Of a DNA stretch of 20,000 nucleotides, positions 1 to 19,975 are shown piece after piece. Under the pieces are notes generated by a model. That model had not been told where the DNA came from, searched no databases, and was given only the letters and a program-made list of their open reading frames with translations. The position numbers and the translations under genes were made by a program. Every line of letters starts with the position of its first letter. The first letter of the stretch is position 1. The stretch comes from an uncultured virus (IMG/VR IMGVR_UViG_3300042191_000126) (Duplodnaviria; Heunggongvirae; Uroviricota; Caudoviricetes): IMG/VR virus record IMGVR_UViG_3300042191_000126. One strand, given 5' to 3'.

Positions 1-23
1 AGTTTCACGAGGAAGGACAACGC

Positions 24-386
24 GTGCCGAAGATCTCCCGCCATGGCGGGCCGTCGGACAAGACCTTGCCCGCGCCGGACCATGTCGTCGTGGTGCTCGA
101 GCCGCTCACCACGGCGGAGGTCGAGGATCTGCGCGAGCGTGGGCCGGCCGTGCACCAGGCCGTTCCCGATCCAGACCCGGAGGGAGGTGAGCTGTCATCG
201 CCTGGGAGCAGCTCCTCAGCATCTACGCCGAAGCCGCCGACGAGCAGCGAGCCGAGCAAACCCGACCCCCGGTCGCGTGCCCGAATGACGGGGAACCGCT
301 CGGCCAGGGGCCGGACGGAATCCTCTTCTGCCAGTTTGACGGCTGGACAGAGGACGGCTCCTACGTCGGGGCCTGACCGCGACTGA
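24..386 (+). CDS. Phage hypothetical protein, Ser/Pro-rich C-terminal half
   Basis: GAGGAAGGA RBS before GTG at 24. The 5' half has high GC3; the 3' half overlaps a second reading frame (197-376). Confidence 0.7.
   Translation: MPKISRHGGPSDKTLPAPDHVVVVLEPLTTAEVEDLRERGPAVHQAVPDPDPEGGELSSPGSSSSASTPKPPTSSEPSKPDPRSRARMTGNRSARGRTESSSASLTAGQRTAPTSGPDRD
197..376 (+). CDS. Nested small protein (59 aa, CPND...CQFD, possibly metal-binding), probable non-canonical ATC start
   Basis: Frame reads (I)AWEQLLSIYAEAADEQRAEQTRPPVACPNDGEPLGQGPDGILFCQFDGWTEDGSYVGA*. Strong SD GGAGGTGA at 183-190, very high GC3. No in-frame ATG/GTG/TTG, so it is absent from the ORF track. Confidence 0.65.
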   Translation: MAWEQLLSIYAEAADEQRAEQTRPPVACPNDGEPLGQGPDGILFCQFDGWTEDGSYVGA

Positions 387-404
387 TAGCCAGGGGAGGC
401 CGTA

Positions 405-815
405 GTGGCTGGCAGCATCGCGTTCAGCAGCTCCACCGTCGGATCGCTGATCATCCGGTACACGTATGTGTGGACATCGGACGCGGCCGGTGTGGTCAGT
501 GGCATCAGCCACGATCTGATCCATGGGGCGGTCATTGCGGCGACGTTTTCCCCCGGTGCTGGCGGAGTCCAGCCGACGAACCTCTATGACGTCGCCCTGC
601 GGTGCGATCAGCACAGCGTGGACGTCCTCAACGAAGAAGGCCTGGACAAGTCGAACACGGCCGGATCGCACCACGCGATCTTCTCCTACAACGCCGCGAA
701 GGGTGTGTTCTTCCGGCAGTTCGTCCACGGCGGCGGATACACACTCGGCGTCACCAACGCCGGCGCTTCGAAGCAAGGGACCATGGAGATCTACGTGTCC
801 CACGGGGTTCTGTAG
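405..815 (+). CDS. Hypothetical virion-associated protein (beta-rich)
   Basis: GGGGAGG RBS, high GC3, located in the head/neck region. Confidence 0.75.
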   Translation: MAGSIAFSSSTVGSLIIRYTYVWTSDAAGVVSGISHDLIHGAVIAATFSPGAGGVQPTNLYDVALRCDQHSVDVLNEEGLDKSNTAGSHHAIFSYNAAKGVFFRQFVHGGGYTLGVTNAGASKQGTMEIYVSHGVL

Positions 816-827
816 GAGGGGTGACAG

Positions 828-1889
828 GTGGCGATCACCACTCCGGTCTACGCGACGCGTGAGGACGTCAAAGACGCCCTCGACGTCAAGGAGACCGCGC
901 GGGCGAACAGCCGGATCGACCGGGCAATTGAGGCAGCGTCCCGAACGGTGGAAGGCCTGCTGCACCGCAGGTTCTACCCGCAGACCGCGACCCGCTACTT
1001 CGACTGGCCCAACGCTCAGCGCGCGCGGCCGTGGCGGCTGTGGCTGGACGACAACGAGCTGATCAGCATCACCACCCTGTCATCCGGGGGGACTACGATC
1101 GCCGCCTCTGACTTCTTCCTCGAACCCAACAGGAACGGCCCGCCGTACAACCAGCTGCAGATCGACCTCGACAGCTCGGCCGCGTTCGGCGGCGGATCAA
1201 CCCACCAGCGAGACATCACCATCACCGGCCTGTACGGCTACACCAACGACGAGACCCTCGTGGGCGACGTCGACGAGGCCATGACCGCCACGGAGACAGA
1301 CCTCGACGTCACCGACACCGCAGGCATCGGCGTCGGCAGCATCCTCCGCACCGGCACCGAACGCCTCCTCATCACCGAGAAGGCCATGAAGGACACCGGT
1401 GTGAACATCGACGCCGCCGACTCCCTCACCGCCAGCGTGGCCGACGTATCGATCACCATGTCCACCACCACCGCCGCGCCCACCGTCGGGGAGACGATCC
1501 TCATCGACTCCGAACGGATGCTCGTCGTCGACAAGGCCGGCGCCGTGCTGACCGTGAAACGCGCGTGGGACGGAAGTGTCCTCGCCACCCACGCAGCAGG
1601 CGCGGACATCTACGCACCCCGCACGTTGACCGTCACCCGCGGGGCACTGGGCACCACCGCCGCGACCATGGCCGCCGGAGACGACCTGTACCGGTGGGAC
1701 CCGCCCAGCCCGGTGCGGGAACTGACAATCGCCGAGGCCCTCAACACCCTGCTCCAGGGCCAGTCCGGGTACGCGCGCACTGTCGGCTCGGGCGAGAACA
1801 CGCGCGAGATGCACGGCCGCGGCCTGCGGGAACTCCGCGAATCCGTCTACACGTCGCACGGCCGCAAGGGCCGCATTCGGGGAGTGTAG
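828..1889 (+). CDS. Head-to-tail adaptor (SPP1 gp15/HK97 gp6-like) with inserted beta domains
   Basis: N-terminal YATREDVKDAL...IDRAIEAASRTVEGLLHRRF motif typical of actinophage adaptors. AGGAGGGGT RBS and position. Confidence 0.75.
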   Translation: MAITTPVYATREDVKDALDVKETARANSRIDRAIEAASRTVEGLLHRRFYPQTATRYFDWPNAQRARPWRLWLDDNELISITTLSSGGTTIAASDFFLEPNRNGPPYNQLQIDLDSSAAFGGGSTHQRDITITGLYGYTNDETLVGDVDEAMTATETDLDVTDTAGIGVGSILRTGTERLLITEKAMKDTGVNIDAADSLTASVADVSITMSTTTAAPTVGETILIDSERMLVVDKAGAVLTVKRAWDGSVLATHAAGADIYAPRTLTVTRGALGTTAATMAAGDDLYRWDPPSPVRELTIAEALNTLLQGQSGYARTVGSGENTREMHGRGLRELRESVYTSHGRKGRIRGV

Positions 1890-2765: not shown

Positions 2766-3560
2766 ATGAAACGAGGTAAATACGAGCGCACTCCGGAGAT
2801 GCGCGCCGCTGCAAGCGCGGCACGCAAGGGCCAGAAGTGCGCTGAAGGGTGTACCTGCAAGAAGCATTTGACCTATGAGCGGACGCCAGAGTCGCTCGCG
2901 AAGTTCGCCGAGTCGACCCGAGGTAGGAAGCAATCTCCGGAGGCTATTGCCAAGCGCACGGCTACACGCAAAGCCCGAGGCACGCTTGTAAAGCACGGCC
3001 ACGGCAGCGCGAAAGAAGGACGTTCGCGCACCTACTTCACGTGGATGAACATGATCCAACGCTGCACCAACGCGAGCGCTCCCGTTTACAAGTACTACGG
3101 CGGTCGCGGCATCGTGGTATGCGATCGCTGGCGTGACTTTGCGAACTTCCTCGCTGACATGGGCGAGCGGCCCGATGGTCTGTCTATCGAACGCATCGAC
3201 AACAACGGCAACTACGAACCGGGCAACTGCCGATGGGCAACCCAGGTTGAGCAGTGCAACAACAAGCGCCGAAACTCTAACTATGATCGGCCACCAAGAA
3301 CGCCGGAATGCGGCCACCCCGATCGTCCGCACAAAGCACGCGGCATGTGCGGAGCCTGCTATTTCCGTTGGCGCGTCGGCCCGCAGAAGAAGGAAGTAGA
3401 CCGACGTACGAAACTCACTGATGAGAACGTGGCCTGGGTCAAGGCAAATGCAGGCAGGCGCTCCCAGCGGGCTATGGCTGAAGCTCTTGGAGTGAGTTCG
3501 AGTACTATTTCCATGATCATCAACGGAAAGCGAAGGGCTAAGGGCCCCGTAAGACCCTGA
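2766..3560 (+). CDS. Free-standing HNH (homing) endonuclease with Cys-rich and C-terminal HTH modules
   Basis: Y..WMNMIQRC...[49 protein letters not shown] phage HNH-type signature. CGH...CGAC motif; C-terminal [23 protein letters not shown]. Lower GC than flanks. Start is GTG 2763 or ATG 2766. Confidence 0.85.
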
Positions 3561-5379: not shown

Positions 5380-5778
5380 GTGGGCTACCGGCACAAGCCG
5401 AAGAACATCGTTCTCAAATTCGACGAGGGCTCCGACTATCCCGGGTTCGAGTGCACTCTCCGGGGTCTCACCCTCGGCGAGTACCGGGAGGTCATCGGGA
5501 TTGACGAGGTCGACAACGTCGCGATCGGCAGCATGCTCGACTCGTTCGCCACGGCTCTCATCTCCTGGAATCTGGAGGACGAGCAGGGCCATCCCGTGGC
5601 GCCGACTCCGGAGGCCGTGCTTGCGCAGGACAAGGACCTCATGCTGAAGGCCGCCGAATCCTGGATCGATGCGATCCACGGGGTGCCCGCCCCTTTGGGG
5701 CAGAGCTCGCCCGATGGCGCGCCGTCCCCGGAGGTGTCGATTCCGATGGACGTCCTGTCACCAAGCCTGGCGAGCTAG
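5380..5778 (+). CDS. Tail assembly chaperone (gpG-like)
   Basis: LISWNLEDEQGHPVAPT motif. Lies between tail tube and tape measure; slippery site near the 3' end. Confidence 0.85.
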   Translation: MGYRHKPKNIVLKFDEGSDYPGFECTLRGLTLGEYREVIGIDEVDNVAIGSMLDSFATALISWNLEDEQGHPVAPTPEAVLAQDKDLMLKAAESWIDAIHGVPAPLGQSSPDGAPSPEVSIPMDVLSPSLAS

Positions 5779-13075: not shown

Positions 13076-13288
13076 ATGGCCTATGACCTGGATATTCAGA
13101 ATCGCTTCACCTACCACCCGCCGCACGGTGATCAGGCCGCCCGATACGAGCGTCTGCGGGCTGCAGGACGGGAGTTCGCCGAGCTCCTATGCGAGCTGTG
13201 CCCGTCCTCGCCCGAGCTGTCCCGTGCCGTGGCACACGTGGATGAGGCCGTGATGAATGCGAACGCGGCAGTTGCGAGGCACAGCTGA
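13076..13288 (+). CDS. Acb2/Tad1-like helical-hairpin protein (putative anti-defence signal sponge), 70 aa
   Basis: AAGGGAGG RBS. RFTYHPP...Q..RYE.LR...CPSSPELSRAVAHVDEAVMNANAAVAR resembles the RE.S.A.T.LEEA.MW.N.A.AR hairpin motif. Confidence 0.6.
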   Translation: MAYDLDIQNRFTYHPPHGDQAARYERLRAAGREFAELLCELCPSSPELSRAVAHVDEAVMNANAAVARHS

Positions 13289-14199
13289 TGGCTACTCCAC
13301 TCACAGCTGAGGCATTCCTCGCCGCGCTCAAGGCCGAGGGTGTGCGAGTCGTCGAGGTCGGCGACTGGCGTACCCACAACCGCAACCACGTAGGCCCCTG
13401 GGGCCCGACGCATGGGGTGATGATCCACCACACCGTCACCACGGGCACCGCGACCAGCGTGCGGATCTGCCGCGACGGCTACACGTCCCTGCCCGGCCCG
13501 CTGTGCCACGGCGTCATCGACAAGACCGGCACCGTGCACCTCGTCGGCTACGGGCGGGCGAACCACGCCGGCCTCGGTGACGACGACGTGCTGCGCGCCG
13601 TGATCGCCGAGACCACGCTGCCGCCGGACGATGAGGCCACGGTCGACGGCAACCGGCACTTCTACGGCTTCGAGTGCGAGAACCTCGGCGACGGCCATGA
13701 CCCGTGGCCCGAGGCGCAGCTCCTCGCGATCGAGAAGGTGTCGGCCGCGATCTGCCGGGCGCACGGCTGGTCGGCGAGGTCGGTGATCGGGCACATGGAG
13801 TGGCAGCCGGGGAAGGTCGATCCGCGCGGGTTCGCCATGGCGGGCATGCGGGACCGGATCGGTGTCCGGCTCGGCCACCCGGTGCCTGTGGCCGTGCTCC
13901 CGGCCCCGGTGCGGCCGGTGGTGGACCTGTCGCGTCTGGTTGCTGCGGCCCGTACGGATCCGTCCCGGGCCGGGACTCCGGTGTCGTACGGCGGGGTGCG
14001 GATGGTGGAGGCGGCGCTGGTCGATGAGGGGCTGCTCGCCCGGCGGTACTCCGATGGGCACTACGGCTCCCTCACGGTGCGGGCGTACGCGGCCTGGCAG
14101 CGGCGGTGCGGCCATACGGGTGCGGGCGCGGACGGTATTCCCGGCATGGCATCGCTCCGGATGCTGGGCCGGCGGCACGGCTTCGATGTGAGGGACTGA
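13288..14199 (+). CDS. Endolysin, N-acetylmuramoyl-L-alanine amidase (Amidase_2-type) with C-terminal peptidoglycan-binding domain
   Basis: GVMIHHT, GRANHAG, YGFECEN and VIGHMEW...KVDP zinc-amidase motifs. C-terminal DGHYG..T..AYAAWQ...ADGIPG PG-binding pattern. Confidence 0.92.
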   Translation: MATPLTAEAFLAALKAEGVRVVEVGDWRTHNRNHVGPWGPTHGVMIHHTVTTGTATSVRICRDGYTSLPGPLCHGVIDKTGTVHLVGYGRANHAGLGDDDVLRAVIAETTLPPDDEATVDGNRHFYGFECENLGDGHDPWPEAQLLAIEKVSAAICRAHGWSARSVIGHMEWQPGKVDPRGFAMAGMRDRIGVRLGHPVPVAVLPAPVRPVVDLSRLVAAARTDPSRAGTPVSYGGVRMVEAALVDEGLLARRYSDGHYGSLTVRAYAAWQRRCGHTGAGADGIPGMASLRMLGRRHGFDVRD

Positions 14200-16101: not shown

Positions 16102-16845
16102 TCACTCGACCGTGTACTCGTAGCCGATCACAAACCGGGGCGGCAGACACCACTCGCCGTAGACGATGAGTCCCTGCTCGTCTGACCACTCGTGCGCCCC
16201 GGCCAGGATCGGCTCACCTACCCTCACACCCAGGTGAGCGGCTTCCCGAGCATCAGCCTCCCGGCCATGCATGGCATCCCTCCCGGAGGCGACCCGGCGG
16301 CCCAGCTTCTCCTCGATCTGCATCAGCAGGTCATTGCCCCGGCCCGGGTGGCCGGCGGTGCGTTGCCCGGGCTCGGTACCCAGCAGATCGGGCACCGCCT
16401 CGACGAAATGGGCCGGGTATTAGTCGACAGCGAGCATCGTCCGCTGGCGTCCCCGGCCGGTGACGTACTCGCGGCGTACCAGGCGCTCGCCCGGGTCGAT
16501 GTCGAACAGCTCGGCCACGTACAGCGGCGGCACGATGAGTTCGGCCGCGATGACGCGCTTGGTCTCGCCGACTGCGAGGAAACTCCCGGTGCGGTGGGTG
16601 CGTAGCAGCCGGTCGCGGGCGGATGGTCCGGCGTTGGGGCTGTCGGCGACGAACGAGCCGCGCTGGGTGGTGACGATGTAGCCCTCGACCTGGAGCCAGG
16701 ACAGGGCGTGGCGGACGGTGGTGGACGATACGCCGTGGTGTTCGGCGAGGTCCTTGACGCTGGGTAGGCGCTGGCTGGGGGCGAGGTCGCCGTCGCGGAT
16801 CTGCTGCCGGTAGTGCTCGGCGATGCGCTCGTATGGGTGCTGCAT
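16102..16845 (-). pseudogene. GntR-family (HutC/KorSA-like, wHTH plus UTRA) regulator interrupted by an in-frame TAA at 16420-16422
   Basis: PYERIAEHYRQQIRDG...RLPSVKDLAEHHGVSSTTVRHALSWLQVEG GntR HTH. ORFs 16420-16881 and 16102-16395 are in the same frame: LAVD*YPAHFVEAVPDLL. GGAAGG RBS before ATG 16845. Confidence 0.8.
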
Positions 16846-16864
16846 GCGTGCAGCCTTCCACGTC

Positions 16865-16932
16865 CGAGTTAATTCACTCAAGGGTCTTGCGAGTTAACTC
16901 ACTCGCCCTCTACGTTTCGAGTTACCTCACTC
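16865..16932. promoter_or_regulatory. Three operator repeats overlapping a divergent promoter region
   Basis: GAGTTAATTCACTC (16866-16879), GAGTTAACTCACTC (16891-16904), GAGTTACCTCACTC (16919-16932), each preceded by C. Plus-strand TTGCGA-N18-TACGTT at 16887-16916. Confidence 0.8.
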
Positions 16933-19543: not shown

Positions 19544-19975
19544 TCATGGTTGTACTGCATCTGTCGTAGTGATGAGGCCCTGCCGGCGCATCTCCTCCAC
19601 GGCGATGCGCGTGGCTGCACGGATTTCGGCTGTTGTGGCGTGCTCGGTGGCGCGGACCATTGCGTTGGTGATGATCGCCTCGATGCGGCTCGCGTCGACC
19701 TGAGGCTGTACTGGCACATCGCGCCATCCGCCCGGCGGTTCGGCGCCTCCGAGGACTGCGTCGACTGCGCCGGGGGGCCAGCCCAGGACTCGGGCGATGG
19801 GGCCGATGGTGTAGGGCATCCGGGACCGGGGGGGCTTGCCGGCCTCGGCTGTCTGGACGCTGGCCATGGACACGTCGGCCATCTCGGCGACCTGCCCCTG
19901 GGACAGTCCGCGGGCGAGGCGGCGTTGCTTGAGGGCTTGGCCGAGCCGGGCCCACATTTTGGGGTCGCGGTTCAT
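19544..19975 (-). CDS. XRE-family HTH regulator, probable immunity repressor
   Basis: LGQALKQRRLARGLSQGQVAEMADVSMASVQTAEAG HTH_3 pattern. AGGAGA RBS; co-oriented upstream of int. Confidence 0.85.
   Translation of the reverse strand: MNRDPKMWARLGQALKQRRLARGLSQGQVAEMADVSMASVQTAEAGKPPRSRMPYTIGPIARVLGWPPGAVDAVLGGAEPPGGWRDVPVQPQVDASRIEAIITNAMVRATEHATTAEIRAATRIAVEEMRRQGLITTTDAVQP

Follow-up and report, generated by a model that had tools for sequence, protein, structure and literature searches.

Among bacterial genes, infC and pcnB begin with AUU or AUC, codons that are subject to discrimination by initiation factor 3 (IF3) (PMC5499595; bioRxiv 10.1101/063800), and why such rare start codons persist is described as an open question in the former source. 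The gene that we describe here, ORF2, lies within another reading frame of the window, by which we mean the whole 20-kb stretch of viral DNA that was analyzed. It resembles infC and pcnB in that a near-cognate AUH codon behind a normal Shine-Dalgarno (SD) sequence appears to have been kept over a long evolutionary distance. The SD lies at a working distance, and the AUH codon sits at the position of the family N terminus in a frame without a canonical start. In contrast to ORF2, infC and pcnB are host genes that are not nested, and the infC codon serves autoregulation; ORF2 is a phage gene of the morphogenesis region, is fully overlapped, and is not known to be subject to feedback.

Genes that share their bases with another frame are also familiar from the nested genes of phiX174 and from lambda Rz/Rz1. 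As treated in a review of overprinted viral genes (PMC8227390), one frame can lie wholly inside another, with the younger product disordered and narrower in distribution, and the same holds for the locus studied here. However, in our case the nested gene appears to be the older, folded one and has no canonical start, while the younger element would extend the product of the upstream gene at its C terminus. The locus also differs from Rz/Rz1 in its setting, since it precedes the head-tail adaptor in the head/neck region and is not part of a lysis cassette. Polerovirus ORF3a is reportedly a hidden, conserved, overlapping ORF that lacks an AUG. Sobemovirus ORFx, which was recognized by comparative analysis, is another (PMC3791421). 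Low-level near-cognate initiation is predicted for both, as it is for ORF2, but they belong to plant RNA viruses and depend on leaky scanning, whereas ORF2 would rely on SD-led bacterial initiation in double-stranded DNA phages. Finally, the tail chaperone G/GT frameshift, as in SPP1 17.5/17.5* (PMC6316719), gives a second product at a low ratio from the -1 frame of a structural-region gene, as might ORF2, but it needs a slippery heptamer, which is absent at ORF2 and present elsewhere in the window. We found no description of this type of locus in the largely open-access literature searched.

The window covers the neck, tail, lysis, and integration functions of a temperate siphophage of high GC content, with PHROGs matches for a head-tail adaptor, major tail protein, tape measure, endolysin (13288-14199), and integrase. 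Its relatives are found in Streptomyces genomes and in phage Dagobah. The conserved downstream neighbor of ORF2 is the head-tail adaptor gene (828..1889, plus strand; phrog_442, E 2.8e-12), which lies inside the fetched flank in 106 of the 129 loci considered below, and between the two is a variable accessory gene of no known family (405..815, plus strand) that is present in 7 of these loci. An HNH endonuclease with a C-terminal helix-turn-helix (HTH) (2766-3560) sits between the neck and major tail genes, and a GntR-family regulator (16420-16881, minus strand) and an HTH repressor (19544-19975, minus strand) are near the integrase. In the tail assembly chaperone gene (5380-5778), the heptamer C CCT TTG at 5691-5697 is a canonical slippery site, and the -1 frame is open for 76 codons, to 5921, in the manner of a G/GT-type frameshift. 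We obtained no match for promoters, terminators, or Rfam families. The nearest record (G001) gave no match, and contigs from four DNA runs contained no indel across window positions 1-900.

The sequence GGAGGTGA occurs once on the plus strand of the window, at 183-190, and the TGA within it (188-190) closes the frame 2..190. It is followed by GCT GTC ATC and then by a frame that stays open up to a TGA at 374-376; counted from the ATC at 197, this frame, ORF2 (197..376, plus strand), has 59 codons and is predicted to encode an N-terminal helix and a small beta domain. There is no ATG, GTG, or TTG among codons 191-373. Third positions are G or C in 50 of the 59 codons (85%), in 316/353 codons of the adaptor gene, and in 46/63 codons of the host frame, ORF1, over the same bases. 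The SD with its TGA, the GCT GTC ATC, the 59 codons with G/C-rich third positions, and the lack of an in-frame ATG, GTG, or TTG had been pointed out in an earlier note on this DNA and are present as described there. The note's ORF 24-386 is not a whole gene, as ORF1 (3..386, plus strand) is open at the 5' end of the window and starts upstream in relatives.

A protein search returned 20 candidates, all of them ORF2 homologs and nearly all beginning M-S/A-W-E-Q-L, and an ORF2 profile matched 761 cluster representatives at E<=0.001. The ATC at 197 aligns exactly with the Met codon (ATG/GTG) of free-standing family members. One homolog, Dagobah HUN42_00015 (QMP84393.1, a hypothetical protein; 43% identity), is annotated as an ATG gene directly upstream of a head-tail adaptor homolog; unlike ORF2, it is not nested, and its normal ATG overlaps the stop codon of an unrelated upstream gene. 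We calculated pN/pS over 87 ungapped ATC/ATT loci, which are 61-79% identical in DNA (5th-95th percentile), and obtained 0.42-0.56 for the ORF2 frame versus 1.36-1.40 for the ORF1 frame. The W, A-C-P, D-G, and C residues of ORF2 are invariant across loci, whereas ORF1-frame residues turn over, and no ORF2 shorter than about 50 codons was found among the loci listed. Thus, ORF2 is the sequence-conserved frame. Neither ORF2 nor ORF1 matched a PHROGs, NCBIfam, or Pfam family above chance, and no second copy of the ORF2 domain was seen in the window or in the 129 loci. The earlier proposal of a real small gene in the -1 frame is supported by these comparisons: as judged by its conservation, ORF2 is a real phage gene family. 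Since it is nested out of frame and begins with ATC, gene finders miss it, or they mis-extend it, as in the family proteins P0036 and P0126, which carry off-frame N-terminal extensions.

To compare start codons, we gathered loci in three ways: a scan with a single sequence, profile scans covering viral contigs and metagenomes, and an HMM search in which 401 genomes were examined. The profile scans retained the best 80 of 420 confirmed loci from viral contigs and the best 80 of 326 from metagenomes, ranked by likeness to the peptide of the window. Three contig-edge loci and five weak matches were dropped, and 174 loci were reduced to 129 representatives at 90% identity. The codon at the ORF2 start position is ATC in 90 of these, ATT in 2, ATG in 22, GTG in 9, and another codon in 6, which gives ATC/ATT in 92 and ATG/GTG in 31; because the samples were ranked by likeness to the window, the ATC share is that of the sample and not of the family, and the loci are relatives, so that the counts are not independent. 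In two of the six others, an SD and ATC are displaced upstream, in frame, by one or five codons, and the remaining four are N-terminally extended forms. In the genome HMM searches, which did not use N-terminal residues as patterns, the new strong matches had ATC in 8/8 cases in the genus sample and 10/12 in the family sample (together 18/20), and the two new matches in the class sample both lacked it. A motif-bearing ORF1 (see below) reads through ORF2 in 82 sampled loci, with ATC/ATT in 78, ATG/GTG in 3 (one of them probably a false motif match), and an ATC five codons further up in 1; no codon besides ATC, ATT, ATG, and GTG was seen in the 82.

The SD of ORF2, GGAGGGAGGTGA (179..190, plus strand), has its GGAGG core at 183-187, 9 nt before the ATC (197..199, plus strand). 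For all pairing energies, the anti-SD motif is one that we presume to apply. The predicted SD/anti-SD duplex at 179-190 is 12 bp long with an energy of -20.9 kcal/mol, the strongest among 12 window starts tested. Across the 92 ATC/ATT loci, the spacing from SD to ATC is 9 nt in 52 and 6-10 nt in 75, and the pairing energy is -16.1 kcal/mol at ATC loci versus about -5 kcal/mol in flanking controls. The median for ORF2 equals that for the adaptor gene of the same phages (-16.4 kcal/mol for each, 71 pairs), and we rejected the idea that the SD is extra strong as compensation for the ATC.

The A of the ATC is invariant even though it is a wobble base in ORF1, where it closes six different codons, each fourfold degenerate or for Ile: TCA in 44 loci, CCA in 27, GTA in 16, ACA in 3, GCA in 1, and ATA in 1; A is the third base of only 128/1622 such ORF1 codons upstream. 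The next ORF1 codon encodes Ser, or Phe where the start is ATT, so ORF1 does not require the ATC bases. The ORF1 Gly codons over the SD are likewise skewed to GGA/GGT, with GGT in 46/71 at -11 versus 43/379 upstream. The bases on either side of the ATC vary freely. An upstream in-frame canonical start is absent in 78/92 loci, and in 54/92 an in-frame stop is no more than 3 codons upstream. In L050, L149, L190, and L193, which have extra codons ahead of the Trp, the SD and ATC have moved as a unit. One locus (L056) has a GTG start in an identical nested layout. In L005, from Streptomyces hazeniae, ORF1 stops at the TGA before the ATC and ORF2 is intact. The shift of ORF1 in this locus (L005:2099-2680) is caused by a seven-G run in which one G is additional and may be a recent change or a mistake in the sequence; its ORF1 linker is unusually basic, and A-ending ORF2 codons are fewer (10.5%). 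The invariant A, the varying flanks, the strong SD, and the lack of a slippery site favor AUC initiation over frameshifting, and we consider it very probable that ORF2 is initiated at AUC 197-199. The earlier note had named this ATC as a possible start, and the sampled loci bear it out: the codon stands at the Met position of relatives, and SD plus ATH is the constant element of the loci.

The same note had offered a second route, a -1 frameshift from ORF1. If programmed, such a shift (or a hop) would make a zinc finger-linker-ORF2 fusion at a low ratio. ORF2 does occupy the -1 frame of ORF1, and its domain is naturally C-terminal in long proteins, with an N-terminal extension of >12 residues in 68 of the 150 best matches; P0108 joins a PKITxxGG N terminus to an ORF2 domain, and P0154, a database singleton, is an in-frame ORF1-ORF2 fusion. 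An upstream SD-like tract can stimulate frameshifting, as in dnaX. However, the 92 loci have no X XXY YYZ heptamer in common at any one position, only 4 scattered upstream homopolymer matches, and they show no stable downstream structure (31/92 loci folded, median z of +0.46/+0.88; window z of 0.77-1.45). The stops just upstream in 54/92 loci and the variation in every way of the bases beside the ATC also argue against a shift, and a fusion would not need Ile at the ATC position, where fused forms have Gly. The textbook C CCT TTG site in the tail chaperone gene of the same phage indicates that slippery sites are recognizable here. Thus, the frameshift route does not stand up well, and we regard it as very unlikely. 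We give somewhat less weight again to entry by read-through or reinitiation at TGA 188-190 after slippage on the G tract, or by initiation at a neighboring codon such as GTC 194. A TGA is found 9 nt before the ATC in many loci, and the extra G in the SD tract of L005 ends ORF1 at that TGA, but its T is present in only 53/92 loci and the G run is not conserved. The codon before the ATC (GTC 44, GCC 27, CGT 14, GAC 3, others 4) varies, which argues that it is no start. Least credible of all is a silent remnant that lost its start and is conserved by inertia while only the ORF1 tail is made, since, although ORF2 has no canonical start and the ORF1 tail is under selection, the pN/pS below 1 and invariant residues across loci of such divergence, the lack of shortened ORF2 frames among the loci listed, and the invariant wobble A and SD codons all speak against it.

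Initiation at AUC in Escherichia coli has been put at 1-2% or 0.1-3% of that at AUG, with Met at the N terminus (bioRxiv 10.1101/063800). By analogy, a low stoichiometry of the ORF2 product is plausible, the efficiencies being those of E. coli and not of Streptomyces.

In relatives, ORF1 begins upstream with a CxxC..CPxC zinc finger, which is followed by a PKITxHGG motif, an acidic linker, and a Ser/Thr-rich tail; its true start is inferred from these relatives. In the window, a purine-rich SD-like tract (9-17) and GTG 24-26 (together 9..26, plus strand) precede the PKI(S/T)xHGG motif. An ATG or GTG lies one or two codons ahead of the motif in 90/90 motif matches, which makes GTG 24 most probably a conserved in-frame start inside ORF1, in addition to the one upstream. 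In seven loci (L036, L051, L060, L074, L081, L137, and L149), ORF1 has a further and longer Cys-rich domain that lies after the zinc finger and ahead of the internal start. A PKITxHGG-type peptide also stands at the start of the otherwise unrelated P0108 (472 amino acids), which has the ORF2 domain at its end.

Over ORF2, ORF1 has a Ser/Thr/Pro/Glu/Lys-rich tail (195..386, plus strand) in the +1 frame relative to ORF2, which ends 10 nt past the ORF2 stop in the window and 4-31 nt past it in 77/92 loci. When the +1 frame of ORF2 recoded with ordinary codon usage was taken as the expectation, Cys plus Trp made up 0.2% of the tail versus 3.7-5.1% expected, E/K/Q/D/N made up 18.9% versus 4.6-5.8%, and the frame was open in 79/92 loci versus 49-53. 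The tail avoids hydrophobic residues as well as Cys and Trp. CTG accounts for 9/324 CTN codons in ORF2 versus 122/225 in the adaptor gene, both from one set of 80 phages. Eleven loci have an ORF1 stop within ORF2; there the skew is seen up to the stop and is lost beyond it, with A at third positions falling from 24% to 9% and Cys plus Trp rising from 0 to 4.1%. As the skew vanishes past the ORF1 stop, the composition indicates translation of a tail that is held hydrophilic without conservation of its individual residues, and the earlier view of this frame as a mere off-frame shadow of ORF2 is not upheld. An ESM Atlas model of an ORF1 has a pLDDT of 0.28, and the Atlas returned unnamed clusters only. 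In loci whose ORF2 start is canonical, ORF1 usually stops ahead of it, and its last domain is often SAP or Rho-N (Pfam); such a motif is found in 9/31 canonical-start loci versus 2/92 nested loci, and the overprinted tail may have replaced this domain.

The predicted structure of ORF2 has a 20-residue helix and a small beta domain (mean pLDDT of 78.6). Its C-P-x-D-G and C-x-x-D-G motifs, with two invariant Cys and two near-invariant Asp residues, are zinc-ribbon-like, and Pfam zinc-ribbon matches were obtained for single ORF2-family members only (E 0.013-0.09). Foldseek found nothing in the PDB at E<=0.001 (best E 1.3), and in the search for solved relatives the best VIA-align Z was 2.2 and the best two BFVD rows were unnamed. 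Many long proteins (P0024-P0165) also end in the ORF2 domain, a module that carries no name and is sometimes present in tandem copies. In a scan of 51 long extended proteins, we found DUF4082 in 17, Laminin_G_3 in 3, GDSL in 1, and DUF4185 in 1, with the ORF2 domain C-terminal. The fixed place of ORF2 between the head genes and the adaptor, together with its use as a C-terminal module of long proteins, suggests a module that attaches cargo to the particle. The chances seem to us roughly even that ORF2 is the bare form of such an anchor, a small module that binds metal and belongs to the virion head or neck. A search of the phage Dagobah paper (PMC7650747) showed no proteomics in the passages covered.

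We propose that 30S subunits would bind the strong SD at 179-190 on late mRNA and set fMet-tRNA on AUC 197-199, which would yield a 59-residue protein beginning fMet-Ala-Trp-Glu-Gln. Ribosomes on ORF1, from the upstream zinc-finger start or from GTG 24, would read through these bases in the +1 frame, extending ORF1 by a disordered, hydrophilic tail of about 64 residues. The substitution and composition patterns indicate that selection acts on both frames. ORF2 is found free-standing and fused, and the ORF1 tail occurs only in nested loci; from this distribution, and not from a rooted tree, we infer that ORF2 is the older frame and that the ORF1 tail was overprinted on it. In six canonical loci (L007, L022, L028, L144, L150, and L157), the ORF1 stop overlaps the ORF2 start as ATGA or GTGA. 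A single G-to-C change in an ancestral ATGA overlap could have created the weak ATC start and removed the ORF1 stop together, giving the read-through tail. We built a tree from 101 adaptor fragments (the other 28 loci were omitted). In it, ATC is spread over deep branches, but the tree is poorly resolved, with 12 label changes of which the starred branches force only 2, and it is too weak to give the direction or a single origin of ATC.

Why ATC has been kept may have several answers. That it throttles ORF2 output is, in our estimate, about as probable as the alternatives taken together. ATG, GTG, and TTG would each force a TGN codon (Cys, Trp, or stop) on ORF1, which its tail avoids, and this clash between the two frames competes seriously with throttling as an explanation; we hold it to be possible, if less probable. 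Retention for IF3-dependent regulation seems doubtful. A broader and rather unlikely proposal is that one base change in a stop/start overlap made a cassette with three products (long ORF1, ORF1 from its internal start, and ORF2 from AUC) in which the AUC acts as a dial that ties the copy number of a virion anchor to the IF3 and ribosome state of the host.

Conserved AUC/AUU starts in bacteria are known almost only from infC and pcnB, and here about 90 divergent loci with ATC, set against 31 relatives with ATG/GTG, offer a natural comparison within one protein. The locus would be a clear instance of overprinting that could plausibly have arisen in one step, in which one short stretch of DNA appears to encode two different proteins, and the nested gene belongs to a family that has been overlooked wholesale in the annotation of Streptomyces-type prophages. 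The ORF2 module ends sugar-binding-like phage proteins and is possibly useful as a display anchor. If the proposal of an AUC dial is true, start-codon proofreading would set the copy number of a head/neck accessory protein in these phages, which would be its first such role beyond autoregulation of the infC type.
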